From contig NC_016803.1 in assembly GCF_000189295.2 (NCBI RefSeq), positions 2,760,001-2,792,000 on the forward strand: 32,000 bases of DNA. Direction: 5' to 3'. The translations under genes were made by a program, and so were the position numbers. Positions within the stretch are counted from its first letter, which is position 1, and every line of letters starts with the position of its first letter. Source of the DNA: Pseudodesulfovibrio mercurii (GTDB lineage Bacteria; Desulfobacterota; Desulfovibrionia; Desulfovibrionales; Desulfovibrionaceae). Positions 1 to 28,119 of the stretch are shown here, piece after piece. The notes under the pieces are model-generated. The model ran no database searches. It worked only from the letters and a program-made list of their open reading frames with translations, and had not been told where the DNA came from.

Positions 1-456
1 CGCCTGAAAGGTCTGGGTCCCTCCGACGCGGCGGTAGCTGCCGTCCTGGAGGAACCGCAGCAGCCGGGGTTGCTGTGAAAGCGGCATTTCGCCGATTTCG
101 TCCAGGAAGAGGCAGCCGCCGTCCGCCGCCTTGACCAGGCCGTCCGTGGCCCTGTCGGCGCCGGTGTACGCCCCCTTGTCGTGCCCGAACAATTCGGAGG
201 AGAACAGGGCGTCGGTGAAGTCGGCGCAGTTGAGGCGGACGATGCGGCCGCCGTATCGGGACAGGCTCCGGATGTGGTCGGCCAGGAGCTCCTTGCCCGT
301 GCCCGACTCCCCGTGGATCAGGACGGGACGGTCGGACAGGGCCGCGACCTTGGCGAAGTCGCGGACCCGCTCCATGGCGGCGCATTCGCCGATCATCGCC
401 TTGACCGGGGACGGATTGCGGAAGAGCCTCGCCTCGTTGGTGCCGGTCCTGATCAT
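1..456 (-). CDS. sigma-54-dependent transcriptional activator (bEBP), N-terminal part only; the gene runs off the left edge
   Basis: Reverse-strand translation from the ATG at 456 (AGGAGG 9 nt upstream): MIRTGTNEARLFRNPSPVKAMIGECAAMERV...VLIHGESGTGKE (Walker A)...GHDKGAYTGA (GAFTGA-type sigma-54 contact loop)...GGCLFLDEIGEM (Walker B)...LLRFLQDGSYRRVGG. The AAA+ core starts about 20 aa after the start codon, so there is no receiver or sensor domain. It is missing from the supplied ORF track because it has no stop codon inside the window. Confidence 0.85.
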   Translation of the reverse strand, partial: MIRTGTNEARLFRNPSPVKAMIGECAAMERVRDFAKVAALSDRPVLIHGESGTGKELLADHIRSLSRYGGRIVRLNCADFTDALFSSELFGHDKGAYTGADRATDGLVKAADGGCLFLDEIGEMPLSQQPRLLRFLQDGSYRRVGGTQTFQA

Positions 457-714
457 GATGTCCCCCTCCTTGTCTGTTTCCGATCCATCGCGTGAGGGAC
501 CTCCCCTCACACCAGGGCCTTTTGGCGGCCAACGGAAACTCGCGTCGGTTTTGTCGGGAAAACAGGCGGGAGATATCAGGTGATTTACATAAATGGCTTG
601 ATATGTTCGCTGGTTGGGAGTTAACACAAGACAGTGTATTTTCGGGGACGGCAGCGTGTTCCGTTCCGGCCCGCCTGTCAGGCGCCATCGGACGGGGGTG
701 CGGGGACGGCCCGG

Positions 715-730
715 TGGCGAGGTTGTTGCA
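715..730 (+). promoter_or_regulatory. candidate sigma-54 (-24/-12) promoter
   Basis: TGGCGAGGTTGTTGCA has GG at 716-717 and GC at 728-729. That is exactly the spacing of the TGGCAC-N5-TTGCW consensus. It lies 61 nt upstream of the ATG at 791, in the 334-bp spacer shared with the divergent bEBP gene. Confidence 0.5.
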
Positions 731-790
731 AAGGATCATATCGGGGGCGTTGCGTTTTTGCCCGGCGTCCCCTGTTGGAGAGGAAGTGGC

Positions 791-2092
791 ATGCCGTCTG
801 AGGAATGGATCAACTGGCTGCGTTCGCCGGAGGCCAAGAAGCCGATCAAGCAGTGCGTGCTCGATGTGTGCTGCGAGATGCGCCAGGGGAGCTACAATCG
901 GGAAATCTGGCCCTACGGGGGCGTCGCCCTGGGCCGGGGAGAGCTGGACTGGTTCCGCAATCATGACAACCTGCCCCGTCCGGACGCCCCGGACGTCTCC
1001 CGCCGCAAGGTCGAGCTTCTCCACGACATATGGAACGAACTCGTCTACTACCTGATGCACGGCAGCTACCGGTTGCTCGATGAGTGGCACGAACGGCAGC
1101 AGGAAACGGGAGAGGGCGGAAAGGCCGGGTCCGAGCCGCGCCGGAGCGTGCCCTGGTCCGCGCAGAATCTGCATCTGGCCCGAAGCGGGAACAGCATCAT
1201 GCTGGCCCGGAACATCAAGCGCGGATTCCTCTACAGCGTGAAGTCGTTGCGGCGCATGGACCAGACCAGGCACGCCCTGTACCGGAAATGGGGCGACGCC
1301 ATGAACAACGACGCGGAGCGCTTCACGTATATGGCGCGAAAGGGCGTCGTGGGCGGACGCTGGTACGCCCCGGCGGGGCGGGGGGCCGAGAAGGCGCTCG
1401 CCGAGGAGGCCTACCTGGGGCTCCATTACGGCGAGTGGCCGGCGGATCGGGACGTCTCGCTCTCGATGTTCAGTCCCGAGACCCCCAAGCTGGCGATCCA
1501 GGCCATGAAGCGATGCAGCCTCTTCTTCTGGGAGGAGGCGCGGGAGCGGCTGTGGGCCGACGGGCCGACGGCCGAAGAGTACCTCGTCTCCCTGTGGCAT
1601 TTCGTTGACTACATGTTTGCCCAGTACGGGTTGCAGGCCATGGACGGCCTGACCGCGACCATCGACAGCGGGAGCCCCCGAGACGAGGAGGGCGGCTCGC
1701 GGGACATCGCCGCGTTGCTCCCGGACCGGCCCGGTGGCGAAGGCCTGGAAGCGGAAATGGACGGCCTGGAGCTCGGTGCCCTGGCGGAGCGGTTGTGCAG
1801 GATGCTGGACCCGGACGAGGCCAGGCTGCTGCTGCTTTTTTCGCGGGGCGCGCAGCGCAGGGACATCATGGCGGACATGGGCCTGAACGGCACGCGGTAT
1901 CTGGATTTGCGCAAGAGCGTGCGTCAGGGGGTCCGGGAGTTCCTTGTCAGGAACGACTTGAGCGAAGACAGGGACGGGACCTGCGAATTCGCCCGGCAAC
2001 TGTTCCGTTCCCTTGTTGAAAGGCAGCAGGAGAGCGACCGGGACGACGGCGACAACGGCGCGGATGGGCGGCGTGGCCGCCCGCGCGGATAA
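791..2092 (+). CDS. hypothetical protein (433 aa) with a sigma-70 region-4-like HTH at the C-terminus
   Basis: Start chosen at ATG 791 (GGAGAGGAAG upstream) inside the 614..2092 ORF. The C-terminal segment LDPDEARLLLLFSRGAQRRDIMADMGLNGTRYLDLRKSVRQGVREFL (nt 1805..1945) looks like ECF/sigma-70 region 4.2. I cannot recognise a region 2 in the N-terminal 330 aa. The C-terminal tail is acidic and Gly/Arg-rich. Confidence 0.7.
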   Translation: MPSEEWINWLRSPEAKKPIKQCVLDVCCEMRQGSYNREIWPYGGVALGRGELDWFRNHDNLPRPDAPDVSRRKVELLHDIWNELVYYLMHGSYRLLDEWHERQQETGEGGKAGSEPRRSVPWSAQNLHLARSGNSIMLARNIKRGFLYSVKSLRRMDQTRHALYRKWGDAMNNDAERFTYMARKGVVGGRWYAPAGRGAEKALAEEAYLGLHYGEWPADRDVSLSMFSPETPKLAIQAMKRCSLFFWEEARERLWADGPTAEEYLVSLWHFVDYMFAQYGLQAMDGLTATIDSGSPRDEEGGSRDIAALLPDRPGGEGLEAEMDGLELGALAERLCRMLDPDEARLLLLFSRGAQRRDIMADMGLNGTRYLDLRKSVRQGVREFLVRNDLSEDRDGTCEFARQLFRSLVERQQESDRDDGDNGADGRRGRPRG

Positions 2093-2117
2093 CCGGCGGC
2101 GGCGATGGAGAGACAAG

Positions 2118-3182
2118 ATGCTCAATGACGACGAATTGCGCGAAGCGCTGGAGACGATGTACCAATTGCGGTTCTGCCCGCCGGACCGGATTCTGTTCGC
2201 CCCGGACGGGAACGAGGACCTGCGGCGGCATGTCGAGACCTGCGGCGTGTGCCGCGAACGGCGGGCCATGGACCGGGAGACGCGGGACGCCTGGGGGGCT
2301 GTGGCCGAGGGCCTTGCGCGGGCCGCTTCGCCGTCGCGACCGGACGCGGCCCCCGGGCAGGTCTGGTCCCTGAGCCCTCGCCTGGAGGGCTGGGGCGCGC
2401 GGTCGCGCCACTACAACGCGCCCATGGTCCTGATCCTCCGCCGTGGGAAGGATGCCGTGGAGGCGGCCCAGCTCTGTCCGGATGCCGGGCTCGCCGGGCC
2501 CGCCGACGTCGACCTGGGCCCGGACTACGGCCTGGCCCAGGGCTGGAACCGCCTCAGTCTCCCCGTGGCGGCCCTGGACGCCTGCTGGGGCTCCGTCCCG
2601 GCGTCGCTGGTGGACGCGACCCTGCGCGCGGCCGTCGCGGACGACGACGCGCCCGAGGATTCGCCGCTGTATTTCTTCCGCAGCCTGGAACGGGCGGTCG
2701 CAGCCGAAATGGGCGCCCGGGCCGCCGACCTGGCCCCGGTCGAGGCCGGTCCGTCCCTGTTGGAACGGGTCGTCGCCTACCTCCGGGGCGTCGGGGCCGT
2801 GGTGGCCGACGGGGCGCGAAACGCTGAAGAGGCCCTGGCCTCCGCGATCTTCCCGCCGGAATGGGCCGCGGCCCGTGCCGCCGAAGGTGACCTGGCCGTG
2901 GTGGTCGTGGCCCGTCTCGACCAGCCGGACATCGAGATCGAGTTGAAAACGGTCGCCCTGCGCGTCTTGCCGAATCCGCAGGGCGGCGTGGTCTTCGCCA
3001 GCGCCCGGCACGGCCTGGGCGCTGTCAGGCGCCTGTCCGCCTGGCACGCGACGCCGTCCGGTGGGCTGGAGCCCGGAAAGAGCGATCTGTCACCGGACGG
3101 AGAGCGCTTCATGCTCGTCTTCACGGAGTTGCCGCCGGACGAGGCGCGCATTGACCGTCTCAGGATCGTGGCCGAGGTGTAG
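2118..3182 (+). CDS. putative zinc-binding anti-sigma factor-like protein (ZAS motif), cytoplasmic, 354 aa
   Basis: ATG 2118 with GGAGAG upstream, 25 nt after the preceding stop. The N-terminus MLNDDELREALETMYQLRFC(20)PPDRILFAPDGNEDLRRH(38)VETC(42)GVC(45)RERR contains H-x3-C-x2-C (nt 2229..2252) plus an upstream Cys, the ZAS arrangement seen in RsrA/ChrR-type anti-sigmas. No hydrophobic segment long enough to be a TM helix. Confidence 0.7.
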   Translation: MLNDDELREALETMYQLRFCPPDRILFAPDGNEDLRRHVETCGVCRERRAMDRETRDAWGAVAEGLARAASPSRPDAAPGQVWSLSPRLEGWGARSRHYNAPMVLILRRGKDAVEAAQLCPDAGLAGPADVDLGPDYGLAQGWNRLSLPVAALDACWGSVPASLVDATLRAAVADDDAPEDSPLYFFRSLERAVAAEMGARAADLAPVEAGPSLLERVVAYLRGVGAVVADGARNAEEALASAIFPPEWAAARAAEGDLAVVVVARLDQPDIEIELKTVALRVLPNPQGGVVFASARHGLGAVRRLSAWHATPSGGLEPGKSDLSPDGERFMLVFTELPPDEARIDRLRIVAEV

Positions 3183-3188
3183 CTTCCG

Positions 3189-5309
3189 ATGGCGTGGAGT
3201 TTTCAGGAGCTGGCCGACTGGGCCGCCTTTCCGGAACGGCTCGCCTGTTTCGAGGCGGACCTGCTGGCCGTCGCCGCCTGTCCGTGGCCGGAGACCGGGG
3301 ACGGCCTGCGCCGTTGCGCCGAGGCCGTGGCCGGGGCGGGGGCGGACGGCGTGCAGGCCCAGCTGTGGAGTGCGGCGCTGGCTTCCCGGTTGCTGCATCC
3401 CGAACGGGCGCCCGCCTGGGCAACGGACTGGCTGACGGCGTCCTTTTCGCCCGGTGACGTGGGCTTGCCGTTTTCCTGGGCGGAACTGTTCCGCTGGAGT
3501 TGGTCGGCGGCCCCCTTCGTGGTGGGCGCGGAGGGCCGGGGACGGCTGATTCACGCCCTGGCCGGGCGTGGTGACGGCGACGAGCGCCCGTTGCTCCCGT
3601 ACTGGGCGGCCGACAAGTTGGGTCCATCGTCCATTCGGGGGGTGGAGGAGGCGGCGCGGGCGGCCCGCCGACAACCCGGCCACGCTGACCGGCGATTCTT
3701 CTTCTGGCCCCAAGTGCGGTTCTCGCGGCGGCGTCAGTCGTGCGACGGCGGGTCCCTCGGGCTGGCCGCCTACCTCGGCTTCATCGGTGAGCCCGGTGAC
3801 GCGCGCGTGGTGGCCACGGGCGTGGTGGGCGGAGGCGAGACCGTGGGCGGGGTGGAGCGGCTGCGGCGCAAATACCGGGCCGTACCGTCCGGCCACGCCT
3901 TTCTCTATTCCCCGGCCGTGGGCGCCGCCCTGCCGGATTGCGACGGGGCGGGCGCAAGGGCCTATGCCGTCGGGACCCTGCGGGAGGCCCGGTTCATCAG
4001 CCGCTTTCACGGGGCCGGTTGCGACGATCAACTGCATCGGCTCTACCGCGCCCGGGGCAATGCGACGGCGGTGGCCCAGTTGCTGGACGAGGTGCCGGGC
4101 GAGGCCCTGGCCCTGATCGAGCGGAACGAGGGGCTCGTGGCCGAGTCCTTCAGCGCAGGCTTTTCGGAAATGGGACTGAAGGTCCTGATCGACATCGTGA
4201 TGCGGGGCGTGCTGGACTACGCCAACCATGCCGACATGCTGCATGTGGTCATGGACGGGCTGACGCGCGAGGTCGTTGCCGGGACCGCCGCGCTCGGCGG
4301 GTTGCCGCCCGCGCAGCTCTGCGAGTTGAAAGCGCGCTGGTTCAGCATGCGGGGAGACGCGGCAAAGAGCGACCGGTGGAGCCGCCTGTCGGCCGATTAC
4401 GCGGCCCACCTGAGCGCCCGGGACAGGCGGCAGTGGCTGCTGATCCGGTTGCACGGCGGCCTGGTCAACCGGCATCACAACCGGTACGACTTCACCCCCG
4501 AAGTGCCGGAGGATTTCCTCGGCGAACTGGAAAAGCTCGAAAACGTCTGCTCCCTGTACGAGCGGACCTACGGGCACGGCTCGCCGGACATGGAGGAGCT
4601 GGCCGCCCTGTACGGAACGCTGGCCCAGCACTTCGCCTTTTGCGGGCCCGAGTATTTCGGGCAGGTCGAAAGATGCGCGGGTCTCTGCCGCCGCTGTTTC
4701 AAGGGGGCGGACCTCCTGCCCGCGGACCGTTCCCGGAGCTATCTCCTGTTCGCCGCCCTGGACGCCGGGGAAGACGCCGCCGCCCGCCAGGCCCTGGTGG
4801 AATACCTGGGCGGCGAGTCGCTGGACGCCGTGGCCCAGGACGATCCGCAGCGCGTCTTCAAGCTGTTCGCCGCTGTCCGCTACGCCGTGGACTCGGGACG
4901 GGGCTTTCCCGGCGTGCTCGATTTCGCCCGCGCGGCCTCGGCCTCCGAGCCCGAGGGTTTCTTCGCGGGCTATCCCTGGAATCTCATCCTGTGCGGGCTG
5001 GCGCGCCTCATCCGTGGCGAGGACAGGGAACGGGCGGGCGTCCTGCTCGACAGGGCCTGGGAAATCAGCCTGGCCGGGGAGGCGACGGTCCAGGCCATGG
5101 CCCTGGTCCCGCTCTCCTGGCGGCTGGAGCTCGGCATGAAGGACGACGCGCTTCAGGGCATGACGGCGACGACCCTGGACCGGCTCAGGGGACTCGACGA
5201 ACTGTGCCTCGATCATTTCCGCCCCGTCCTGGAGGCGCCGGACTGGCAACGCGCCCTCGCCGAGGTCGTGGCCCGGCGAAGCCGCCTTTTCCCCTTCACC
5301 TATCGCTGA
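3189..5309 (+). CDS. hypothetical 706-aa protein: Lon/S16-like Ser-Lys protease-like segment followed by a long alpha-helical (repeat-like) region
   Basis: ATG 3189 lies 6 nt after the preceding stop, so the genes look translationally linked. Residues 186-230, DGGSLGLAAYLGFIGEPGDARVVATGVVGGGETVGGVERLRRKY (nt 3744..3878), are colinear with the Lon C-terminal core DGPSAGIAM...VAMTGEITLRG.VLPIGGLKEK (Ser in DG-x-S-x-G, a T-G pair, Lys about 40 residues later). The rest is Leu/Ala/Arg-rich helical sequence. Confidence 0.72.
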   Translation: MAWSFQELADWAAFPERLACFEADLLAVAACPWPETGDGLRRCAEAVAGAGADGVQAQLWSAALASRLLHPERAPAWATDWLTASFSPGDVGLPFSWAELFRWSWSAAPFVVGAEGRGRLIHALAGRGDGDERPLLPYWAADKLGPSSIRGVEEAARAARRQPGHADRRFFFWPQVRFSRRRQSCDGGSLGLAAYLGFIGEPGDARVVATGVVGGGETVGGVERLRRKYRAVPSGHAFLYSPAVGAALPDCDGAGARAYAVGTLREARFISRFHGAGCDDQLHRLYRARGNATAVAQLLDEVPGEALALIERNEGLVAESFSAGFSEMGLKVLIDIVMRGVLDYANHADMLHVVMDGLTREVVAGTAALGGLPPAQLCELKARWFSMRGDAAKSDRWSRLSADYAAHLSARDRRQWLLIRLHGGLVNRHHNRYDFTPEVPEDFLGELEKLENVCSLYERTYGHGSPDMEELAALYGTLAQHFAFCGPEYFGQVERCAGLCRRCFKGADLLPADRSRSYLLFAALDAGEDAAARQALVEYLGGESLDAVAQDDPQRVFKLFAAVRYAVDSGRGFPGVLDFARAASASEPEGFFAGYPWNLILCGLARLIRGEDRERAGVLLDRAWEISLAGEATVQAMALVPLSWRLELGMKDDALQGMTATTLDRLRGLDELCLDHFRPVLEAPDWQRALAEVVARRSRLFPFTYR

Positions 5310-5545
5310 TCGGCCCGACAGGCCCCGCCTGCGGGATGGTCTGCGGTCTTGCGCCGCGCGGCCTTGCCGGGCGCCCCTCCTGTCGGGGCGACTTTCCTCT
5401 CCCTTTTCCCGCAATCAGGGCGACATGTTTCATTTTATCGGCCCTGTTCTCCACCCGGTACGCGTTGGCCGCCATAAGGGAGGTTGGCGCGCGGCGAAAA
5501 TCCGCGACGCCGGACGACGCCCGCAACAAACCAAAGGAGAACGCA

Positions 5546-6289
5546 ATGCTTCGTCAACAACGAGTGGAGAGGGCCCTGTTCAATCATTTACCATTGGTCG
5601 TGGCGGGAATCAGGGAGGTCTTGGAGGAGCGCTGCGCGGCCGGGGCCGTTGTCCTGCATCTGGCTCCGCAGGTCGAGCGAATGCTGCGGGACGCCTATGC
5701 GCGGGAGGTGACGCCGGTGGGGGACGTGCTGCGTTTTTTGGGCGAGGACGCCGAAAGCAGTCCGCGAAGCCTGGCGGCGCTGGGTTTTCTCAACGCGCTT
5801 CAGGCCCGGCTGTCCGAGGTCCTGGAAGCGGTCGCCGACCTGTCCAACCTCGAGGAGGCAAAGCTGTGGGCGTGGGTGGAACGCCGCTGTTTCGCTCCCC
5901 GCATGATGCTCGACTTCCGGCATCTGGCCGTTGTTGCGGAGACGCCGCGCATCGATGAGATCGAGCTCATGGAGGCCATCATGGGGAAGGATCGAACGGA
6001 ACTCGCGACCATCCGGGCCGGGGTGGTCGAGCGGGGCGCGACGCAGAACAATTTCGGATTCGATCTCGTGTGCCAGCTGTTGGCCGGAGAACCTGTCCGC
6101 ACCGGGTTGCAGCGGATATGGCGAACGGATTCCATCAAGCGGGCCGTGGCCATCCGCGACCGCCTTCAGACCCTTCCCATCGAGGAGCGGCAACGGTTTC
6201 CCGGCCACGCCGTCATGCTCCACCTGGCCGAGTTCACGCTGGAGCGGCTCCGCCTGCGCGTAACGGCCGAAACGGCCCGCCGCCGCTAG
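5546..6289 (+). CDS. hypothetical protein, 247 aa
   Basis: ATG 5546 is preceded by AAAGGAGAA. The frame is open to TAG 6287..6289. The composition looks like real coding sequence (MLRQQRVERALFNHLPLVVAGIREVLEE...). I recognise no motif. A 236-bp gap separates it from the upstream gene. Confidence 0.62.
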   Translation: MLRQQRVERALFNHLPLVVAGIREVLEERCAAGAVVLHLAPQVERMLRDAYAREVTPVGDVLRFLGEDAESSPRSLAALGFLNALQARLSEVLEAVADLSNLEEAKLWAWVERRCFAPRMMLDFRHLAVVAETPRIDEIELMEAIMGKDRTELATIRAGVVERGATQNNFGFDLVCQLLAGEPVRTGLQRIWRTDSIKRAVAIRDRLQTLPIEERQRFPGHAVMLHLAEFTLERLRLRVTAETARRR

Positions 6290-14742: not shown

Positions 14743-15513
14743 CTATCTGTTGTAGTAGGCCATCCAGAGGCCTTCCATGACCAGGTCGGGGCGCAGTTCG
14801 TTTATGGTTTCGGAGAGTTGGGCGATGGTGGGGGCGAGGCCGCCGGTGGCGATGACGAAGGGGTCCTTGAGTTGCTGGGAGAGTTTTTGGACCAGGCCGT
14901 CGATCATGGACGCGAAGCCAAAGACGAAGCCCTGGTTGAGGCACTCGGCCGTGCTCTGGCCCCAGTGGAGGGTGTTGCTCTTGACCGTGAGGTCCACCTT
15001 GGGGAGTTTAGCGGTGCCCGAGGCCAGGGCCGAGGCCGAGGAGAGCAGGCCGGGGCAGATGAGGCCGCCCTTGAAGGCGTTGTCCTGGATGCAGGCGCAG
15101 GTAGTGGCGGTGCCGAAGTCCACGACGATGAGGTTTTTCTCGTCGTAGGTCATGCGGGCGGAGTAGCAGCCCACCAGGACGTCCGCGCCGACCTGTTCGG
15201 GGTGGGCGTATTCGTTGTCGATGTCCAGGGGCAGGTCGCGGCCCGCGAACAGGCAGTCGCATTCCAGGAACCGGGCGGCCATGCTCGTGATGAGCGGGTC
15301 CAGCGGCGGGACCACGGAGGAGATGACGCAGGCCTCGATGTCGGTGGGGGCCACGCCTTCGCGCAGGAGGATGGATTCGATCTTGAGTCCCCAGTCGTCG
15401 TCGGTGTTGGCCGGGCGGGTGGGGAGGGTGTAGCTCTCGTTCAGTCCCTGGTCGTCGGCCAGGCAGAGCTTGGTATTGGTGTTGCCCGCGTCGAACAGCA
15501 GCGTTTTGCCCAT
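14743..15513 (-). CDS. coaX: type III pantothenate kinase
   Basis: LLFDAGNTNTK (the DxGNT phosphate-1 motif), VVDFGTATT and VIATGGLA, arranged as in CoaX/ASKHA proteins. 256 aa. Confidence 0.92.
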   Translation of the reverse strand: MGKTLLFDAGNTNTKLCLADDQGLNESYTLPTRPANTDDDWGLKIESILLREGVAPTDIEACVISSVVPPLDPLITSMAARFLECDCLFAGRDLPLDIDNEYAHPEQVGADVLVGCYSARMTYDEKNLIVVDFGTATTCACIQDNAFKGGLICPGLLSSASALASGTAKLPKVDLTVKSNTLHWGQSTAECLNQGFVFGFASMIDGLVQKLSQQLKDPFVIATGGLAPTIAQLSETINELRPDLVMEGLWMAYYNR

Positions 15514-15551
15514 GGCGTGTCTCCTTTCGGAGTGTTTCTACTTTTTCGGGG

Positions 15552-15593
15552 CAAAAGACAAGGCCCGCGCCGAGGAGGAAAGACGCGGGCCTT
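15552..15593 (-). terminator. probable terminator downstream of the MCP gene
   Basis: On the minus strand: AAGGCCCGCG-(14 nt)-CGCGGGCCTT followed by GTCTTTTG. The loop is large and the T-run is short. Confidence 0.55.
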
Positions 15594-15608
15594 GGGCCGG
15601 AAGGGCCG

Positions 15609-17786
15609 TCAGAACTTTTCGAAGTCGCTGTCGTCGGTCATGTCCAGGTCCACGCCGGTGTCGTCCGGGCCGCCCGCATCCGGTCCGATGATGCCGCTGG
15701 AGGGAGCGGGCAGGGACCTGGCCTTGCGCGGCCCGACCGAGACCGTGGTCCCGGCGGGCGCGGTCCGGGCCGAGCCCAGGCGGAAGTAGCCGATGATCTG
15801 TTGCAGCTGCATGGCGTGGCCGGTCAGGGTGTGGGAGGCGGCGGCCACGTGTTCGGACTCGGCCGCGTTCTGCTGGACCACGCGGTCCAGTTCGAGGACG
15901 GCGTCCTTGATCTGGATGGCGCCCGCGCTCTGCTCGTCGGAGCTGACCGAGATTTCGCGGATGAGCTCGGCGGTGCGGGTGATGTCCGGGACCATCTTGT
16001 CGAGCATGGCCCCGGCCTGTTCGGCGATGGCCACGGAGTCGACGGACAGCCCGCTGATCTCGGCGGCGGCCACGCCGCTGCGTTCGGCCAGCTTGCGCAC
16101 CTCGGCCGCGACCACGGCGAACCCCTTGCCGTGCTCGCCCGCGCGGGCGGCCTCGATGGCCGCATTGAGGGCCAGGAGGTTGGTCTGGCGCGCGATGTCC
16201 TCGACGATGGCGATCTTGTCCGCGATCTGGCGCATGGCCTCCACGGTCCGGGTCACGGACCGGCCGCCTTCCCCGGCGTCGCCCGCGGCCTGGCGGGCGA
16301 TCTTCTCGGTCTCGCGGGCGTTGCCCGTGTTCTGTTCGATGTTGGCGGTCATCTGCTCCATGGAGGCGGAGACCTCCTCCACGGCGCTGGCCTGGTTGGA
16401 CGCGCCCTCGGCCAGGGCCTGGGAGGTGTCGGTCAGTTCGCCGCTGCCCGCGGTCACGGACTCGGCCGCTCCCTGGACCTGGGCGACCACCTCGCGGAGC
16501 TTGCGGCCCATGGCGTTGACCGCCTCGCCGAGTTCGTCCAGCTCGTCCCGCAGGCGGCCCGTCCGCGCGGGCAGTCGCGGCACGTCCAGGTCGCCCTGGT
16601 TGATGTCGGTCATGACGGTCACGGTGGCGTTGATGGTCGAACTCATCTTGCGGGCGAAGAGGATGAAGACGAGGACGCCCAGAAGGAGCATGGCCGCGCC
16701 GATGCCCACGGTCCACCAGTTGGTGGAGTCCAGGGCGGACACTGTGGCCCGCTGGCCCTCCATGAATTCGTCGAGATAGCCGGTGCCGAGGATGACCCAG
16801 TCCCAGGGCTTGAAGTAGACCGCGCTGAGGATGGCCGTGCGCGGGCCGCTCGGGGAGGCCAGGCCGGTCTCCAGGGTGACCACCTTGCCGCCCGCCTCCC
16901 TGGCCTTCACGGCCAGGTCCTTGTACACGGCCCGGCCCGAGGCGTCGGTCTGGGACAGGATGTTGGCGCCCTCGGCCTTGTCGTCGGGATGCATCTTGAT
17001 GACGCCCTCGGACGAGCCGGACCCGCCGAACACGGTCAGGAAGCCGGTGCGGCCGAGCTTGACGTTCTTGAAGGCCCGGCGCAGCTGCTCCACGCCCTCC
17101 TGGAGGATGCCCACGTACAGGCAGCCGATGACCTTGCCCGAGCCGTCCCGGATGGGCCGGTACTGGGTCAGGTACCAGGCGTTGACCACGAAGGCCGTGC
17201 CCCGGTAGGTCTCGCCCGCCCTGACGGTCCGGGCCACGGCCGACGAGCCGGGGATGAAGGTGCCCACGGCCCGCTTGCCGTCGGTCTTGAGGATGTTGGT
17301 GGCCACGCGCAGCAGGTCGCCCGACTCGTTCATGGTCTGGAAGACCGTGCAGGTGGTCCCGGTCAGCTGCATGATCTCGTCCACCAGGGGGGTGGGCGTG
17401 CCCGGGTCGCTGTTCTGTCCGAGCCAGTCGGCCCCCAGGGCCAGCCTGGGCAGGGACACGGCCGAGGCGGCCTTGCTGATCTGGTTGACCGCCCGCCACT
17501 CCACGGTTCCGGGCAGCAGGCGCAGCCCGCCGCCGCGCCGTTCCAGGTCCAGGACGACGCGCATGTCGTTCTCGAGCTGTTTGGTCAGGGTGGCGTGCTG
17601 GGTGTCGAGCAGGTTGCGGGCGTCGTCCACGGCCAGGGTCATCTCGGCCTGGGCCTGGAGGTCGAAGTGGGTGGTCAGGGTCTCGGCGACCTTGGAGCTC
17701 TGCCACAGGAGGATGCCGAGGATGCAGGCCGCCGTGGTGCCGACCAGGGCGGTTCCGAGCAGTGTAAGCTTGGGTCCTATGCGCAT
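15609..17786 (-). CDS. methyl-accepting chemotaxis protein with a periplasmic Cache-type sensor
   Basis: Start at ATG 17786 (AAGGGGA upstream; [16 protein letters not shown]... forms TM1). The periplasmic domain carries [32 protein letters not shown], which looks Cache_3-Cache_2-like. It is followed by a second TM, a HAMP region, and the MCP signalling hairpin ([40 protein letters not shown]). Confidence 0.92.
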
Positions 17787-17970
17787 GAAACGTCCCCTTG
17801 GTTCTCGGGTTTCGTTTAGGACAACCATAGCAACTCCAAGGGAATGAACAATTATAATCCGGCGGGAAGAACGCCCGTTCGCCGCCGCAAAATGTCCGGT
17901 TGTGTTGTGCCCGTCCGGGAAATCACCTATAGACGGATGATATATCCGTCATGACACAAGGAGTGCCGTC

Positions 17971-19014
17971 GTGAATCCCGCTTCCCTGATCCCCATGGCC
18001 GAACCCATACCCATCCACTGGGCGTGGTTCGATGTCCTGCTCATCGCCACCTTCGCGGCCCATGTGCTGTTCATGAACGCCATGCTCGGGTCCGCGGCCA
18101 TCGGCCTGGTCCAGGCCGTGCGCGGCCGGAACACGCTCATCCGCGAGGTGGGCATGAAGCTGCCGCCGCTGCTCGCCCTGACCATCAACATGGGCGTGGC
18201 CCCGCTGCTCTTCCTCCAGGTCAACTACGGCAACTTCGACTACGTCAGCTCGGTGCTCATGGGCGGTTGGTGGCTGGCCGTGATCTTCGTGCTCCTCTAT
18301 TCCTACTACGGCTTCTACCTGTACAAGTTCAAATACGAGACCATGGGCGCGGGGCTGCGCCTGGCCCTGTTCGGCTCGTCCGTGCTGGGCATCGTCTACG
18401 TGGGCTTCATGTTCTCCAACAACATGACCCTGATGCTCCGGCCCGAGGGCTGGGCGCCCTATTTCGACGGCTATGCCGGGTTCCTCAACTGGCGCGATCC
18501 GGCCCTGTATCCCCGGTTCCTGCACATGATGATCGGGGCCCTGGCCGTGGGCGGCCTGTTCGTGGCCCTGCTCGGGCGGCACAAGCAAAGCGAGGACTTC
18601 GTCCGCACCGGCATGTGGTGGTTCACCCGGGCCACCATGGTCAACCTGGCCGTGGGGCTGTGGTTCCTCATGGCCCTGCCGGACAAGGTCATGCTGGCCT
18701 TCATGGGCCACAACCTGCCCGCCACCCTGACCCTGGTCGCCGGGCTGGCCTCGGCGGGCGTGCTGCTCTACGCGGGCTTCCGCATGGAGCCCATGCGCGT
18801 GGCCGCCTGGGCCGCAATCACCGTGTTCCTCATGGCCTGCGTCCGCCACTGGGCGCGGGTCCTGTACCTGGACCCGTGGTTCTCAATGGACACCGTGCCC
18901 GTGACCAACCAGTACGGCTCCTTCTACCTCTTCCTCGGCTTCCTGGTCGGGGGCGGGGCGCTCATGGCCTACATGCTCAAGCTCTATTTCAAGTCGGGAC
19001 AGGGGAGGGCGTAG
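17971..19014 (+). CDS. polytopic membrane protein, distant cytochrome bd subunit-like partner
   Basis: GTG 17971 with AAGGAG at 17958. About 9 TM helices. TM1 (LLIATFAAHVLFMNAMLG) has a conserved-looking His, as in the neighbouring CydA-like protein. Only 3 nt separate it from the next gene. Confidence 0.8.
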   Translation: MNPASLIPMAEPIPIHWAWFDVLLIATFAAHVLFMNAMLGSAAIGLVQAVRGRNTLIREVGMKLPPLLALTINMGVAPLLFLQVNYGNFDYVSSVLMGGWWLAVIFVLLYSYYGFYLYKFKYETMGAGLRLALFGSSVLGIVYVGFMFSNNMTLMLRPEGWAPYFDGYAGFLNWRDPALYPRFLHMMIGALAVGGLFVALLGRHKQSEDFVRTGMWWFTRATMVNLAVGLWFLMALPDKVMLAFMGHNLPATLTLVAGLASAGVLLYAGFRMEPMRVAAWAAITVFLMACVRHWARVLYLDPWFSMDTVPVTNQYGSFYLFLGFLVGGGALMAYMLKLYFKSGQGRA

Positions 19015-19017
19015 CTC

Positions 19018-21528
19018 ATGGAATATCCCATCTGGCATCTGACCACCCTGGGCGGCGGCTTCTGGATCGCCGTCATCGCCACCCTGCACGTCTACGTGGC
19101 CCACTTCGCCGTGGGCGGCGGCCTGTTCCTGGTCCTGACCGAGCGGGCGGCCTATAAATCCGACAACATCCACCTGCTCGAATACGCCCGGAAGCACACC
19201 CGCTTCTTCCTGCTCCTGACCATGGCCTTCGGCGGCGTGTCCGGCGTGGCCATCTGGCTGACCGTGGCCCTGCTCGCGCCCGAGGCGACCATCACCCTGA
19301 TCCACCAGTTCGTCTTCGGCTGGGCCGCAGAATGGGTCTGCTTCCTGGGCGAGATTCTGGCCCTGATCATCTACTACTACGCCTGGGACCGCATGGACCG
19401 CCGCGACCACATGATCGTGGGCTGGCTCTACTTCCTGTTCGGCTGGCTGTCCCTCTTCCTGATCAACGGGATCATCGGCTTCATGCTCACCCCGGGCCAG
19501 TGGCTCGAGACCAGGAGCTTCTGGGACGGCTTCTTCAACCCGTCCTTCTGGCCGTCCCTGGTCTTCCGCTCCTTCTTCTCGGCCGTGTGCGCGGGGCTGT
19601 TCGGCTTCGTCACGGCCACGCGCATCCCGGACGAACCCACCCGGCTGCATACCGTCCGGGTCTGCTCGGCCTGGACCGTGCTCGGCGTGCTGGCCGTGTT
19701 CCTGTCCGGCTGGTGGTACGTGGCCGCCATGCCGCCCGAGCAGTACGAGATGATCGTCTACAAGTCGAACCGCGTCGCCCACTTCATGCAGTACTTCTGG
19801 ATCTTCGGCACGGCCACCCTCATCGGCGGCCTGCTCCTGGCCCTGAAGACCCCCAAGGCCCTGTCTTTCACCATGGCCCTGGTGGTCCTGCTGGTCGGCC
19901 AGGGGCTGTTCGGCTCCTTCGAGTTCATCCGCGAGGCGGGCCGCAAGCCGTACCTCATCTGGGATACGATCTATTCCTCCTCCATCCTCAAGGCCCACGT
20001 GCCGGTCATCGACCAGAACGGTGCCATCGCCTCGGCCAAGTGGGCCCCGCCCGAACTGGCCGACGGCATCACCGAGGCCAACGTCAAGGTCGCGGGCGAG
20101 TTCCTCTTCCAGCTCGAATGCTCGGCCTGCCACTCCGTGCACGGCCCCATGAACGAGATCACCAAGCGCACCGTCCAGTACGACGTGAACGGCATGGACG
20201 CCTTCCTGACCGGCATGGGCAAGCTGAACAAGTACATGCCCCCGTTCATCGGCACCCCCGAGGAGCGCATGGCCCTGGCCCGGTACATCGCCGAGGACCT
20301 CAACGGCCACGCCCCGGCGGCCGCGCCCCCGGCCCCGGAAATGGCCGAGCCCGCGTCCGCGCCCTTTGACCCCGAAACCTCGGAATACACCCTGGTGGGC
20401 TGGTGCTCGCGCGGCATGGGCTTCTTCTCCCAGAACGACAAGTGGACCCTGCTGCCGCCCATGAACGTCATCCGCGCCCAGCTCGTGCGCCGCGATCCCT
20501 CGCCCGAACGGGTCATGGACGACGTGACCATCACCTACGCCATCGAGCCCGATCAGGCCGACCAGGCCCTGACCGGCACCCTCGAACTCAACGCCGACGC
20601 GGGCCGCTTCGAGGCCCGGGTGGCCATCCCGCCCTACGTCAAGGACGGGGCGTACAACCCCCTGCCCCTCGTCACCCTGACGGCCAGGGACGGCTCCGGC
20701 GCGGTCCTGGCCACGGCCAGGCTCGCCGCGCCCACCTCGGACCAGATGGGCTGCTTCAACTGCCACAGCGGCCAGTGGAAGCAGGACGGCTCGGGCGTGA
20801 CCACCGCCACGGTGGAGAACATCCTGGCCACCCACGACCGCATGAACTCCACCCGCCTGGCCGAAACCAAGGGCGAGGTCCGGTGCATCACCTGCCACGA
20901 CGACCCCATTCAGTCCGCCGAAGGCAATGCGGACAAGCCCAACCTGTCCGCCGCCATCCACGGCGTGCACGCCATCTACATGGCCGGGCGCGGTGCCGAA
21001 AGCTCCTGCCTCAAGTGCCACCCCCAGTCCACCCTGCGCGGACAGCACGAGGCCGTGGGCTTCACCTGCACCGACTGCCACGGCATGATCGAGGACCTGG
21101 CCGTGTCCCTGCTCAAGGCCGAACAGGCACGCGGCGTGCCCGGCGCGGGCCGGATCATGGCCCGAATCACCCCCCGGACCCTGCCCAACAAGGAGGCCAT
21201 CAACCCCCGAAAGCCGTGGATCAACGAGCCCGACTGCCTGACCTGCCACAAGGACTTCGCCGCGCCCGACGTGGACTCGGCCTTCAACACCTGGACCAAG
21301 GACGCCGACTCCCTCTTCGCCGCCCGGCGCGACGAGATGGACGCCATGCACTGCGGGGCCTGCCACGGCTCGCCCCACGCCATCTATCCGGCCACGCCGC
21401 GCGACAACGTCCTGCCCCTGCAATACATGGACGAGGCCCGGCCCCTGGGCGCGGGCGGCAACTGCACCGTCTGCCACAAGGATCCCATGGAATACCCCGC
21501 CCACCATCCGGGCATGGGACTCGAATAA
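19018..21528 (+). CDS. cytochrome bd subunit I (CydA)-like membrane domain fused to an octahaem c-type cytochrome
   Basis: The N-terminal 330 aa or so are colinear with CydA: IATLHVYVAHFAVGGGLFLV matches AMYHFLFVPLTLG, and LGEILALIIYYYAWDRMDRRDHMIVGW matches [26 protein letters not shown]. The C-terminal 500 aa or so contain eight CxxCH motifs: CSACH, CFNCH, CITCH, CLKCH, CTDCH, CLTCH, CGACH, CTVCH. Confidence 0.88.
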   Translation: MEYPIWHLTTLGGGFWIAVIATLHVYVAHFAVGGGLFLVLTERAAYKSDNIHLLEYARKHTRFFLLLTMAFGGVSGVAIWLTVALLAPEATITLIHQFVFGWAAEWVCFLGEILALIIYYYAWDRMDRRDHMIVGWLYFLFGWLSLFLINGIIGFMLTPGQWLETRSFWDGFFNPSFWPSLVFRSFFSAVCAGLFGFVTATRIPDEPTRLHTVRVCSAWTVLGVLAVFLSGWWYVAAMPPEQYEMIVYKSNRVAHFMQYFWIFGTATLIGGLLLALKTPKALSFTMALVVLLVGQGLFGSFEFIREAGRKPYLIWDTIYSSSILKAHVPVIDQNGAIASAKWAPPELADGITEANVKVAGEFLFQLECSACHSVHGPMNEITKRTVQYDVNGMDAFLTGMGKLNKYMPPFIGTPEERMALARYIAEDLNGHAPAAAPPAPEMAEPASAPFDPETSEYTLVGWCSRGMGFFSQNDKWTLLPPMNVIRAQLVRRDPSPERVMDDVTITYAIEPDQADQALTGTLELNADAGRFEARVAIPPYVKDGAYNPLPLVTLTARDGSGAVLATARLAAPTSDQMGCFNCHSGQWKQDGSGVTTATVENILATHDRMNSTRLAETKGEVRCITCHDDPIQSAEGNADKPNLSAAIHGVHAIYMAGRGAESSCLKCHPQSTLRGQHEAVGFTCTDCHGMIEDLAVSLLKAEQARGVPGAGRIMARITPRTLPNKEAINPRKPWINEPDCLTCHKDFAAPDVDSAFNTWTKDADSLFAARRDEMDAMHCGACHGSPHAIYPATPRDNVLPLQYMDEARPLGAGGNCTVCHKDPMEYPAHHPGMGLE

Positions 21529-21551
21529 TCCGTCACCCCCGAACCCCCAAA

Positions 21552-21583
21552 GGGCGCACCACAGCCGGTGCGCCCTTTTTTTT
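21552..21583 (+). terminator. rho-independent terminator of the cytochrome operon
   Basis: GGGCGCACC-ACAGCC-GGTGCGCCC followed by TTTTTTTT, starting 24 nt after the stop codon. Confidence 0.85.
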
Positions 21584-21690
21584 CGGGGAATCCAGGGCGC
21601 TGCTTCGGCGCGGGACGCCTTCCGCCAACGATCTCCACCACCCCCGCGACCCGCCCCGCGAAGCGGCGCCAAAAAGTTTTGGAGATTCTC

Positions 21691-21765
21691 AAGAACCTTT
21701 TCCAAAAGGTTCTTAAGCCGCCGGAGGCGCCCGCCCGGCGAGGGCCCGCCGGAGGCGTTCCCCTC
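21691..21765. repeat. copy of a GC-rich intergenic repeat family
   Basis: A palindrome AAGAACCTTTT-CC-AAAAGGTTCTT (21691..21714) is followed by CGCCGGAGGCGCCCGCCCGGCGAGGGC (21719..21745) and CCGCCGGAGGCGTTCCC. The 27-mer is identical to 31531..31557. The last motif recurs at 31583..31599 and, inverted, at 31173..31191. Confidence 0.7.
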
Positions 21766-21785
21766 TCTGTGCGGCGCGGCCGCGC

Positions 21786-24215
21786 CTAGGCGGCCACGTG
21801 GTTGCCGAAGATTTCCCAGGTTTTGAGGAAGGTGGCGTCGAAGGTGCGGTTTTCGACGTGGGAGCGGGCCTTGCGGCGCATGTACTGGATGCGTTCGGGG
21901 GTATCGACCATGTGCAGGATGGCGCGGAGCAGGGAGTCGGGGTCGCCGGCGGGGACGATGATGCCGGTCTCGTTGGGCAGGACGTTTTCGGCGGGGCCGC
22001 CCTTGTCGGTGACGATGACGGGCAGTCCCGAGGCCTGGGCTTCGAGGACGACGTTGCCGAAGGTGTCGGTGGCCGAGGGGAAGACGAAGAGGTCGGCGCT
22101 GGCGTAGGCCTGGGCCAGGGCTTCGCCCTTGAGCACGCCGGTGAAGGTGGCGGGGGTGGAGCGCAGGGCGCGCCGCATTTCGGGCAGGTAGGGGCCGTCG
22201 CCGACCACGATGAGCTGGATGGCGTCGCGCATACGGGCGGCCTTGCGGAAGGCCTCGGTCAGGACGTCGAGGCCTTTTTCCTTGGACACGCGGCCCACGT
22301 AGAGGAGCTTGGTGCCGCCGCCGATGTCGAACTGGTTGAAGAAGCCGTTGCGTTTGGCGGGGTGGAACCGTTCGGTGTCCACGCCGCGCGGGTAGGTGAC
22401 GATCTTGCCGGGGTCGATGCCGCGGTCGATGAGCTCGTACCTGGTCGCTTCGGAGGGCGCGTAGATGACCTGCATCTGGTTGTAGAACCAGGACATGTAG
22501 CGCCAGCAGCCGTCTTCCAGGCCGGCGTCTTCGGTGAAGGCCCCGACGTATTCGGGGAAGGCGGTGTGGTAGGTGCCGTGGAAGGGGAGCTTGAGGATCC
22601 TGGCGATGGCCAGTCCGGCCAGGCCGACGGGGCCGGGGGTGGCGGCGAGGATGCAGTCGTATTCCTGCTCGAAGCAGTGGGTGAGCATGTCGAGGAAGGG
22701 CGGGTAGGCCAGGGAGATTTCGGGGTATTCCGGGATGTCGAAGCGGCCCACGGGCTCGAAGGAGACGGCGCCGGGCACGTCGGCCCTGGCCCCGCAGGTG
22801 ATGACGGTCATGTCCTTGCCGTGGCGGGCGACCATTTCGAGTTGCTGGCGGATGGTCCTGGCCACGCCGTTGATCTCGTCGAAGGTGTCGGTGAAGTGGG
22901 CGATCTTGAGGTCGTCGCTGGTCCGGGCGTTCTTTTTGCGGAAGCGGTCGAGGCAGGCGTTGGAGAAGGCCCGTTCGGTGGAGAAGAGGTCGTAGCCCAC
23001 GAAGTAGGGGGCGAGCAGGGCGTAGAGGGAGCCCGCCGAGCCGATGGAGTGGAAGACGTCGAAGAGGTTGGCCCCGATGACGGAGTTGAGGGTCCGGTCG
23101 GCGAACTGGGCGAGGACGCGGTTGGCGGCCAGGGAGACGAAGCGGGCCCATTCGCGTTCGAGGACGACCACGTCGGCGACCTTGCCCCGGGCGATGCGCA
23201 TGAGGGTCTCGTCGTGGGCGATGATGTCGGCGGCCTCCTTGAGGAGCATGTCCTGGACCGAGTCGGACGGGCCGTATTCGCGGTGCAGGGTGGCCTTGCC
23301 CCGGCCGATGATCCGTTGCAGCAGCGAGGAGATTCCGGGTTTGGGTTCGGCGCCGGGGTTGAGGGCGGACTTGATGAAGCGGAAGCAGAGGTGCTCGGAG
23401 ACCTCGGGCGCGAGGGAGCCGGTGCGCGAGCGGTAGAACTGGTAGGCGATGCCGTAGAGGTTGTGGGCCATGGTCCGGGGCGTGGCCGCGGTCCCGGCGG
23501 GCCGGGAGGTGCGTTCGGTCAGCGCGGTCAGGACGTTCTTCAGGGTGGGCTGGCCGGGAAAGAGGGTGTGCATGCGCGCGATGTTCAGGGAGGAGTGGTC
23601 GTCGGACCCGCCGGTGATGCCCTTTTCCCAGGGCTCGTCGCCGTAGGGTTCGATGCCGTGGGTATTGGCCAGGCGGTCGATATCGAGCGGGGTCAGGCGG
23701 TTCACGATGTCGCGCAGGGTCCGGTTCTGGCGGGCGTCGCGGGTGCCGTTTTCCTCCAGGGTGTTGAACAGGAGCAGGGCCTGTTCGAAGTGGGCCGGGG
23801 TGAGCCGGTCGTTGACCGCGAAGAGGGGGTGGGCCAGGACGTGGTGGATGCGCTGTTCACGCAGGTAGGGGACCAGGTCGAAGACGTTGTCGCGGCAGCG
23901 CTGGATGTCCTGGTGCTGGGCTTCGGTGATGTCGTAGGCCAGGACGTGGAGCTTGCAGCGGTCCTCGGGGAAGTAGGTGGTGATCTCCTCGCTGACGAAG
24001 GTGTTCGGCAGGTGGGCGATCTCGAGCGACCCGGCGATGGTGTTGTGGTCGGTGATTGTGACCATATCCATGCCCCTGGCCAGGGCGATGTCGTAGAGGC
24101 GGCGTGGTTCGGTGAAGCTCTCGGGGCAGCCGATCTTTTGCAGGATCCACTGCGACGGGCGCGTGGAAAAGCGTGAGTGGACGTGCATGTCCACTTTGAA
24201 CATGGGGTCAGCCAT
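21786..24215 (-). CDS. PHP-domain phosphoesterase fused to a GT4-family glycosyltransferase
   Basis: The N-terminus, VDMHVHSRFS...MVTITDHNTIAG...GGSDDHS, carries PHP metal-binding His/Asp motifs. The C-terminal half is GT-B/GT4-like: GRVSKEKGLDVL...LIVVGDGPY...ADLFVFPSATDTFGNVVLEAQASGLPVIVTDKGGPAE. 809 aa. Confidence 0.88.
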   Translation of the reverse strand: MADPMFKVDMHVHSRFSTRPSQWILQKIGCPESFTEPRRLYDIALARGMDMVTITDHNTIAGSLEIAHLPNTFVSEEITTYFPEDRCKLHVLAYDITEAQHQDIQRCRDNVFDLVPYLREQRIHHVLAHPLFAVNDRLTPAHFEQALLLFNTLEENGTRDARQNRTLRDIVNRLTPLDIDRLANTHGIEPYGDEPWEKGITGGSDDHSSLNIARMHTLFPGQPTLKNVLTALTERTSRPAGTAATPRTMAHNLYGIAYQFYRSRTGSLAPEVSEHLCFRFIKSALNPGAEPKPGISSLLQRIIGRGKATLHREYGPSDSVQDMLLKEAADIIAHDETLMRIARGKVADVVVLEREWARFVSLAANRVLAQFADRTLNSVIGANLFDVFHSIGSAGSLYALLAPYFVGYDLFSTERAFSNACLDRFRKKNARTSDDLKIAHFTDTFDEINGVARTIRQQLEMVARHGKDMTVITCGARADVPGAVSFEPVGRFDIPEYPEISLAYPPFLDMLTHCFEQEYDCILAATPGPVGLAGLAIARILKLPFHGTYHTAFPEYVGAFTEDAGLEDGCWRYMSWFYNQMQVIYAPSEATRYELIDRGIDPGKIVTYPRGVDTERFHPAKRNGFFNQFDIGGGTKLLYVGRVSKEKGLDVLTEAFRKAARMRDAIQLIVVGDGPYLPEMRRALRSTPATFTGVLKGEALAQAYASADLFVFPSATDTFGNVVLEAQASGLPVIVTDKGGPAENVLPNETGIIVPAGDPDSLLRAILHMVDTPERIQYMRRKARSHVENRTFDATFLKTWEIFGNHVAA

Positions 24216-24263
24216 GGTTCTCTCCGTTGCGGCCGGGGGCCGCGTGGTAAATCGTTCGGCGGC

Positions 24264-24623
24264 CTAGGCGCAGCGGCGGGCGCGGTCCAGGAGCCCGTCT
24301 TCCATGGCGGACTGGCAGTGCACGCACAGGCGGGCCGAGGGGTTGGCCTTGAGCCGAGCCACGCCGATCTCCTCGCCGCACTCCTCGCAGACGCCGTAGT
24401 CGGCCTGGGACAGCCGCTTGAGGGCGGCCTCCATCTCGCGGATGCGGGCCACGCCGCGTCGCTGCATGGCCACGGACAGGCCGTGCTGGGCGAGCTGGGA
24501 GGCGAAGTCGGTGTCGTCGGGGCAGTTTTCGAGGGCGGTGATGCCGGTGTTCAGCTGGCCGCTCATGGCGTGCAGTCCCTGCATGAGGTGGGACCTGATT
24601 TCCCTGATCTGGTTCCTGGTCAT
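24264..24623 (-). CDS. DksA/TraR-family C4 zinc-finger protein
   Basis: ATG 24623 with GGAGGA upstream. 119 aa. A coiled-coil-like N-terminal part precedes CEECGEEIGVARLKANPSARLCVHC (CxxC-N17-CxxC). Confidence 0.88.
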   Translation of the reverse strand: MTRNQIREIRSHLMQGLHAMSGQLNTGITALENCPDDTDFASQLAQHGLSVAMQRRGVARIREMEAALKRLSQADYGVCEECGEEIGVARLKANPSARLCVHCQSAMEDGLLDRARRCA

Positions 24624-25283: not shown

Positions 25284-25296
25284 TCGAGAGAGAACA

Positions 25297-26160: not shown

Positions 26161-26182
26161 TAGTTCGGGAACAGGAAGGCTT

Positions 26183-27595: not shown

Positions 27596-27598
27596 CCC

Positions 27599-28097: not shown

Positions 28098-28119
28098 CGC
28101 GAACCAACACGGACGGACA

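Follow-up and report, generated by a model that had tools for sequence, protein, structure and literature searches.

Sigma-54 activators that lack a sensory domain are usually controlled by a protein partner, and PspF/PspA and HrpR/S-HrpL are familiar sigma-54 circuits. In Pseudomonas syringae, the sensor-less activator HrpR/S drives the gene of an extracytoplasmic function (ECF) sigma factor, HrpL, and the target gene of this circuit encodes a transcription factor. Sigma modules released by a protease are known from CRISPR type III systems, namely CalpL/CalpT/CalpS and Craspase/Csx30/RpoE. Among class I anti-sigma domains, about 35% are soluble, and ~72% of the soluble ones carry a zinc motif (PMC7406223), while ChrR carries, besides its zinc-binding anti-sigma (ZAS) domain, a distinct soluble sensor domain (PMC2877774). 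Here we describe an operon of three orphan genes, referred to as g1, g2 and g3, in a 32,000-nucleotide stretch of Pseudodesulfovibrio mercurii DNA (contig NC_016803.1, positions 2,760,001 to 2,792,000; hereafter the window). The original prediction, made from the sequence of the window, had read g1 and g2 as an atypical sigma/anti-sigma pair. The anti-sigma-like half of this reading was supported by a motif and a profile match in g2, whereas the sigma half found no profile match, and we tentatively propose that g2 is a ZAS-like switch protein with a partner outside the sigma-70 family.

The g1-g3 operon and its sequence signatures

The predicted zinc ligands of g2, C20 and H38-x3-C42-x2-C45, are all present, and the protein was rightly described as free of transmembrane (TM) segments: the hydrophobicity scan found none that would qualify as a TM helix. 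The HxxxCxxC pattern has a single occurrence in the six-frame translation of the whole window (63,996 aa), the one in g2. Among shuffled versions of g2, 0.057% contained the pattern anywhere and 0.007% had it in their first 60 residues, so that chance does not account for it. Another choice of start codon would shift the residue numbers; a public protein collection lists g2 in versions of 341, 354 and 372 aa.

A ZAS hidden Markov model (HMM) was built from 19 sequences, comprising 18 zinc-motif anti-sigma factors from Table S1 of PMC7406223 and RsrA. On aa 1-80 of g2 it scored 15.3 bits, aligning aa 34-65 (LRRHVETCGVCRERRA...), a segment that runs from the last part of helix 2 through helix 3. 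Free shuffling of the g2 N-terminus never gave this score in 3000 trials (maximum 8.4 bits). With C20, H38, C42 and C45 held fixed, the shuffles (n = 3000) averaged 3.8 bits and 0.6% reached 15.3 bits (P~0.006). Because ligand-preserving shuffles so seldom attain the score of g2, the similarity points to a ZAS-like context beyond the ligands alone. The NCBIfam RsrA model gave a sub-threshold match over aa 32-56 (E = 0.096), with 12.8 bits where the model demands 62.5. At the level of sequence, these results support a ZAS-type motif in the g2 N-terminus whose flanking residues resemble zinc-binding anti-sigma domains.

The predicted reading frame of g1 was confirmed by an ATG at 791 preceded by a ribosome-binding site (GGAGAGGAAG), a stop codon ending at 2092 and coding-type GC over its 433 codons. 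The placement of g2 exactly 25 nt past the g1 stop codon was also correct: its ATG at 2118 follows a GGAGAG ribosome-binding site 5-6 nt upstream, the best site among the candidate g2 starts. The DNA near g1 and g2 is 65-73% GC, and because high-GC genomes contain many long spurious open reading frames (ORFs), we checked GC content by codon position. At positions 1/2/3 it was 0.66/0.46/0.87 in g1 and 0.78/0.52/0.88 in g2, as compared with 0.67/0.44/0.89 in tyrS, a bona fide gene of the same window, whereas antisense ORFs overlapping g1 and g2 showed shifted values, as in non-coding frames. Since the two genes match tyrS while the overlapping alternative ORFs are shifted, g1 and g2 are both real coding genes.

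The presumed pair is in fact a trio. The start of g3 lies 6 nt past the g2 stop codon, and given the gaps of 25 and 6 nt, the lack of any terminator between g1, g2 and g3 and the hairpin behind g3, the three genes form one operon; all three are coding. The two-gene unit originally proposed was right in its genes and their spacing, and overlooked g3 together with the sigma-54-type promoter, the activator gene and the strain-specific setting described below.

The original prediction also placed a convincing region-4.2-like helix-turn-helix (HTH) at aa 339-385 of g1 and raised the possibility of a novel ECF-like group distinguished by an extended domain at the N-terminus. Neither claim held. Searches of Pfam and NCBIfam with the whole protein returned no sigma or HTH model at E <= 1, including Sigma70_r2, Sigma70_r4 and Sigma70_r4_2, which had been named as a check. 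When an 88-aa fragment was scanned alone (E <= 10), Sigma70_r4, Sigma70_r4_2 and GerE stayed silent and no HTH or sigma model appeared; among PDB sequences, no sigma chain matched g1 at E <= 10. We further assembled 13 ECF sigma factors, E. coli RpoE (100% identical to its database record) and 12 diverse plasmid-borne ones. HMMs of this set, one full-length and one for region 4, were run with filters off (--max) on g1, on 2000 shuffled versions of it and on every ORF of the window. The full-length model found no match in g1, and the region-4 model scored -0.4 bits, a value equalled by 10.5% of the shuffled sequences. With hhalign, g1 residues 320-350 aligned to RpoE 119-149 at P = 0.24, in the same register as the by-eye choice, and region 2 was untouched. 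Pairwise BLASTP comparisons gave nothing significant against RsrA, E. coli RpoE or the Lon protease domain of E. coli.

With regions 2, 3 and 4 undetected by every profile tried, g1 is not detectably a member of the sigma-70 family as far as its sequence tells. Its 433 aa compare with ~190 aa (range 170-226) for the 13 collected ECF factors. N-terminal extensions of ECF factors are rare and mostly shorter than C-terminal ones (PMC7826278), and the 330-residue non-sigma N-terminus of g1 would not count as an ECF factor with an extension. Because no sigma region 2, 3 or 4 is detectable in g1, the proposed ECF-like group falls on the very test that defines ECF factors.

One could still suppose that g2 is a ZAS anti-sigma factor whose cognate sigma factor is g1, a real but extremely divergent sigma-70 or ECF-like protein with a large domain at its N-terminus. 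The gene order and tight spacing, reminiscent of ECF modules, the ZAS likeness of g2 and the predicted all-helical g1 with its four short C-terminal helices would agree with this, and HrpR/S-HrpL offers a precedent for a cascade from a sigma-54 activator to an ECF factor. We nonetheless consider it decidedly unlikely. No match was obtained to Sigma70_r2, r3, r4 or r4_2 or to the NCBIfam sigma models, the filter-free ECF models, hhalign and the PDB search were negative or within the range of shuffles, and ECF extensions of this kind are exceptional. Furthermore, the promoter of g1 itself is of the sigma-54 type, and an element shared by other promoters of the region (see below) lacks a -35/-10 pair and is absent from both the g1 promoter and the g5 upstream region.

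The third gene suggests another route by which a partner might be freed. In hhalign, g3 residues 186-231 aligned to the Lon catalytic segment with 33% identity over 46 columns (P = 0.033), placing DGGSLG opposite the DGPSAG serine motif; the serine is aligned, and the catalytic lysine is not, its position being unconserved in the alignment. An in-house Lon HMM aligned the same segment with a negative score (-1.5 bits), matched by 2.4% of shuffles, while the Pfam Lon models were silent on the g3 fragment at E <= 10 and BLASTP found nothing. By analogy with the CRISPR-associated modules, g3 might be a protease of the Lon type, equipped with a large sensor domain, that would cleave g2, encoded in the same operon, and release g1. 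Since the window holds no CRISPR, SAVED or CHAT component and the Lon models respond as described, we judge such a protease-gated cascade very unlikely.

Putative upstream control elements and the strain-specific region

Upstream of g1, across a divergent intergenic region of 334 bp, lies the 5' part of a gene for a sigma-54 enhancer-binding protein (EBP; Table 1). The encoded protein has ~20 aa ahead of its AAA+ domain, no sensory domain, and a GAYTGA loop, and in this is PspF-like; a partner controlling it could be encoded in the g1-g3 operon. The elements, spacing and orientation of a sigma-54-dependent promoter are found ahead of g1, in the candidate site TGGCGAGGTTGTTGCA. It has two mismatches to TGGCAC-N5-TTGCW, being one of four sites with <=2 mismatches in 64 kb (both strands), and is the sole good sigma-54 site within the intergenic regions of the island. 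Exact matches to TGGC-N7-TTGCW number 2 in the window, against 0.47 expected. The sigma-54 scan found no site upstream of g4 or g5, and a sigma-70 consensus scan of window positions 1-6600, which include the g1 and g4 upstream regions, found no promoter-like site. A second exact sigma-54 core match, TGGCTTCCCGGTTGCT, lies at 3379-3394 (+) within the g3 coding region and is probably due to chance.

A 17-nt element, GTTSRCCGCCAWAAGG, recurs ahead of the activator gene, g4 and o1. The copies at 518-534 and 5463-5479 are identical at 16 of 17 positions, a local alignment score reached by 1 of 300 shuffles, and matches with <=3 mismatches number 5, against 0.21 expected. All three copies have the same orientation relative to the downstream gene and a similar distance to its start codon. 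The element is absent from the g1 promoter and from the region upstream of g5, and contains no recognisable -35/-10 pair. Judged by these matches, three transcription units of the island (activator, g4 and o1) have a common putative cis element. A common motif had been guessed upstream of 791, 5546 and 11799; the guess proved good for g4 (5546), and not for g1 or g5.

Each of the five genes g1-g5 encodes the only member of its 90%-identity cluster among ~15 billion proteins, g2 being accompanied by its own start variants only. Only the queries themselves were recovered when g1 and g2 were searched against 5.8 billion clusters with a word index, and when g1 was compared exhaustively with 1.84 billion representative proteins by phmmer. 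Pfam, NCBIfam, PADLOC and PHROGs reported nothing for g1-g4 apart from the sub-threshold RsrA match of g2, and PDB sequence searches with g1, g2 and g3 gave nothing relevant. Scans of genome contigs found nothing with g5 and distant Bacteroidota only with tyrS; neither metagenome contigs scanned with g5 and g3 nor plasmids searched by tblastn with g1, g2, g3 and the C-terminal part of g5 yielded a match. In an exact-sequence look-up g1 and g2 were absent, and the one record of g4 was a 1.9-kb contig, which matches the window at 100% identity and thus has no comparative value. The core neighbours coaX, a multiheme cytochrome gene and a glycosyltransferase gene belong to clusters of 27-37 members, which include Pseudodesulfovibrio hydrargyri, P. 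methanolicus, P. karagichevae and others. Because the core neighbours have 27-37 close relatives, the orphan status of the island genes is not due to an unsampled lineage.

We compared the coaX loci of seven Pseudodesulfovibrio relatives with the window. CoaX of these relatives shows 92-95% protein identity, and the DNA is ~85% identical up to the coaX stop codon, where the alignment ends. Beyond this point, the relatives carry eno-folD; in one of them, Desulfovibrio sp. Fe33, another insert, of four genes, occupies the site. The seven loci contain nothing similar to the activator, g1-g5, tyrS or o1. Because synteny with all seven relatives, from a genus that is well sampled, breaks off exactly at 14742, the DNA holding g1-g5 is accessory and strain-specific and occupies a variable site; this coaX-adjacent site looks like a hotspot for such DNA. 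GC content at third codon positions (GC3) is 0.80-0.88 in g1-g5 versus 0.89-0.95 in the syntenic core genes to the right (14743-32000), which fits foreign or recently acquired DNA; in the EBP gene it is 0.91-0.95. Signs of a mobile element were sought and none seen: there are no direct repeats at the flanks, and neither tRNA genes nor Rfam families were found.

The largest protein of the island, encoded by g5, has a complete SecA part, with SecA_DEAD, P-loop_SecA and SecA_SW domains and intact GEGKT (Walker A) and DEAD motifs. Its C-terminal domain contains QLRNKMSHF, with an R-x4-H motif (RNKMSH) reminiscent of HEPN RNases. The non-SecA part has no Pfam, PADLOC or plasmid match and no relatives were found for it; to our knowledge, no SecA-membrane fusion of this kind has been described. 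A hairpin with a T-run, resembling a terminator, separates tyrS from g5, and tyrS, placed as it is in the non-syntenic region, may be a divergent or a second, acquired copy. No paralogy was detected among the island proteins. Elsewhere in the window, at ~28870-29300 (+), a MarR-like winged-helix sequence (...MRMKELAEAMGITTGTLTVLVDRLAEKDCVRRVPHDTDRRS...) was noticed in an unlisted frame.

The missing homologues and the low-confidence structure predictions could also mean that the ORFs are non-functional, that is, decaying or spurious genes in recently acquired DNA. We find this most improbable, as g1-g5 all display strong, unbroken codon-position GC periodicity across 1.3-5.5 kb, ribosome-binding sites are intact, and g5 keeps full-length SecA domains with its Walker A and DEAD motifs. 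Low confidence is, moreover, expected of single-sequence folding without an alignment.

Table 1. Features of the window discussed in the text (positions count from its first nucleotide)
Feature	Position	Strand	Description
EBP gene, 5' part	1..456	-	Pfam Sigma54_activat, E=2e-43; divergent from g1
Shared element, copy 1	518..534	-	GTTSRCCGCCAWAAGG in gene orientation; begins 77 nt upstream of the EBP start codon
Sigma-54-type promoter (candidate)	715..730	+	TGGCGAGGTTGTTGCA; -24 GG and -12 GC at correct spacing; ends 60 nt upstream of the g1 ATG
g1	791..2092	+	433 aa; soluble orphan, predicted all-helical; the "sigma-like" gene of the original prediction
Putative HTH of g1	1805..1945	+	aa 339-385; four short predicted helices, read by eye
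g2	2118..3182	+	354 aa; soluble acidic orphan; alternative starts 2064 and 2157
ZAS-like zinc-motif segment of g2	2175..2312	+	C20, H38-x3-C42-x2-C45 (nt 2229-2252), then the following helix
g3	3189..5309	+	706 aa; soluble orphan; third operon gene
Weak Lon/S16-like segment of g3	3744-3881	+	aa 186-231; DGGSLGLAAYLGF...ATGVV...GGV, resembling the serine motif; unproven
Terminator-like hairpin	5372..5400	+	GC hairpin (5372-5390) and T-rich tail after g3; consensus match only
Shared element, copy 2	5463..5479	+	GTTSRCCGCCAWAAGG; begins 82 nt upstream of the g4 start codon
g4	5546..6289	+	247-aa orphan; own transcription unit; converges on g5, frames overlap by 4 nt
g5	6286..11799	-	1837 aa; N-terminal SecA-like ATPase, ~12-13 hydrophobic segments, orphan cytoplasmic domain of ~400 aa
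tyrS	11970-13244	-	Tyrosyl-tRNA synthetase; within the non-syntenic region; 90%-identity singleton
o1	13588..14409	-	273 aa; ~6 TM segments; orphan at 90% identity
Shared element, copy 3	14456-14472		GTTSRCCGCCAWAAGG, weaker; begins 62 nt upstream of the o1 start codon
Synteny breakpoint	14742..14743		coaX stop codon; alignment with seven relatives ends there

A possible zinc-dependent partner switch

A possible explanation, which we put forward with reserve, is that g2 is a ZAS-like zinc-switch protein holding a partner, probably g1, and that g1 does not belong to the sigma-70 family. The N-terminal module of g2 would coordinate zinc through H38, C42, C45 and perhaps C20, and in its reduced, zinc-bound form g2 would sequester the partner protein, the likeliest candidate being the product of the gene directly upstream, g1. 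Release might follow from thiol oxidation, from zinc loss, or from a signal received through the ~280-residue C-terminal domain of g2 or through g3. More speculatively, once freed, g1 would bind DNA through the helical segment at its C-terminus and work as a conventional regulator, not as a sigma subunit of RNA polymerase. Its target could be the shared element upstream of the activator gene, g4 and o1; binding there might close a feedback loop through the sigma-54 activator onto the sigma-54 promoter of g1 itself. The original prediction had offered, as a fallback, a non-sigma regulator held by a redox-sensitive partner. This was the better of its two readings and makes up the core of the explanation given here, with the same tentative standing. 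The length of g2 is unusual, yet not without precedent in concept, as soluble ZAS proteins are common and ChrR has a separate sensor domain.

A number of observations weigh against the proposed switch. The Pfam model zf-HC2, which had been suggested as a check on g2, does not report the protein. The spacing of the ligands had been called nearly that of RsrA, which is true of the His and the two following Cys residues (38/42/45 vs 37/41/44) and untrue of the distal ligand: C20 stands 18 residues before H38, whereas the canonical distance is 25-26. It is 26 in RsrA and the 18 aligned ZAS sequences and 25 (His25/His50) in RslA (PMC2877774). Positions 12-13 of g2 contain no Cys or His, so there is no fourth ligand at the canonical spacing. 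The ZAS profile left helix 1 and its ligand unaligned, and over the helix-2 region g2 is ~8 residues too short. In a coevolution analysis, helix 1 of the anti-sigma domain contacts sigma domain 4 and helix 4 contacts sigma domain 2 (PMC7406223), and because of the helix-1 contact, the atypical part of g2 is also the part most relevant to sigma binding.

On the side of g1, the putative HTH is a by-eye reading with no statistical support, as the region-4 score illustrates. Single-sequence AlphaFold made g1 all-helical with four short helices at 328-387, whose lengths would suit the proposed HTH; at pLDDT (predicted local distance difference test) values of 36.5 for g1 and 37.7 for g2, both models are unusable. 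No homologues of g1 or g2 were found in which ligand conservation or g1-g2 co-occurrence could be compared. The connection of g1 to the shared element is pure conjecture on our part, and the sigma-54 activator or another factor could bind there instead. The functional case is built from ~30 residues and gene adjacency; with its claims hanging on one short motif, we see it as a modest lead and not a discovery.

The same observations leave room for an account with no partner switch, which we also regard as possible and hold with equal caution. Here, g1-g3 would be lineage-specific accessory proteins with functions unrelated to transcription, perhaps part of a conflict, defence or envelope-stress module that includes g4, g5 and o1, and the HxxxCxxC pattern would be a structural zinc knuckle or convergent. 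Consistent with it are the five proteins each alone in a 90% cluster, the absence of the region from seven relatives and the GC3 values below those of the core, as are the lack of a DNA-binding or sigma signature in g1 and the confinement of ZAS likeness to ~30 residues of g2. However, the ligand-preserving shuffles point to a ZAS-like context and not to a generic zinc knuckle, PADLOC and PHROGs show no defence or phage family for g1-g4, and the account supplies no positive mechanism.

Should g2 prove to be a ZAS-type switch with a non-sigma partner, this would show that the zinc anti-sigma module is a portable device for sequestering proteins and is not bound to ECF factors; the locus would also add a sigma-54-controlled example of such a module. 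A bolder version, which we think unlikely, is that a ZAS switch was recruited outside the sigma-70 family: g2 would hold a transcription regulator of an entirely new kind, or an unrecognisable sigma-like g1, in a sigma-54-driven feedback circuit that governs the island, with the SecA-like, ~12-TM, R-x4-H (HEPN-like) protein as effector, and the whole would be an undescribed, all-orphan stress or conflict system. A multi-gene orphan island of five proteins in a well-sampled genus is in any case useful for studying the origin of such genes.

Comparison with described systems

ECF (group 4) factors of the sigma-70 family share with the locus only the gene order, the short gap and the four predicted C-terminal helices of g1. 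Unlike them, g1 has no sigma-2 or sigma-4 homology, is 433 aa long versus ~190, and appears to be preceded by a sigma-54-type promoter in place of an autoregulated ECF promoter. CalpL/CalpT/CalpS and Craspase/Csx30/RpoE resemble the locus in their three-gene plan, with a regulator, an inhibitor and a large accessory protein, and in their location in accessory DNA. They differ in that the present locus has no CRISPR context, SAVED or CHAT, that g1 is no ECF sigma factor, and that the Lon-like motif of g3 lacks statistical support.

PspF/PspA and HrpR/S-HrpL likewise combine a sensor-less sigma-54 activator with a divergent operon that it presumably activates here. In contrast to those circuits, none of g1-g3 resembles PspA, HrpV or HrpL, and the dependence of the g1 promoter on the adjoining EBP is suggested by position only.

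The ZAS factors RsrA, RslA, ChrR and RsiW are the nearest to g2. They differ from it in having a recognisable sigma factor as neighbour and in the distance of the distal ligand (25-26 residues before the His, not 18) with an alignable helix 1. In addition, g2 does not reach the curated models Pfam zf-HC2 and NCBIfam RsrA, and its ~280-aa C-terminal orphan domain, with neither a cupin nor a TM segment, also sets it apart. In common with them, g2 is soluble, carries an N-terminal H-x3-C-x2-C with ZAS-like flanks (LRRHVETCGVCRERRA) and is encoded directly downstream of its putative partner gene, and, as in ChrR, a domain distinct from the zinc module makes up the C-terminal part.

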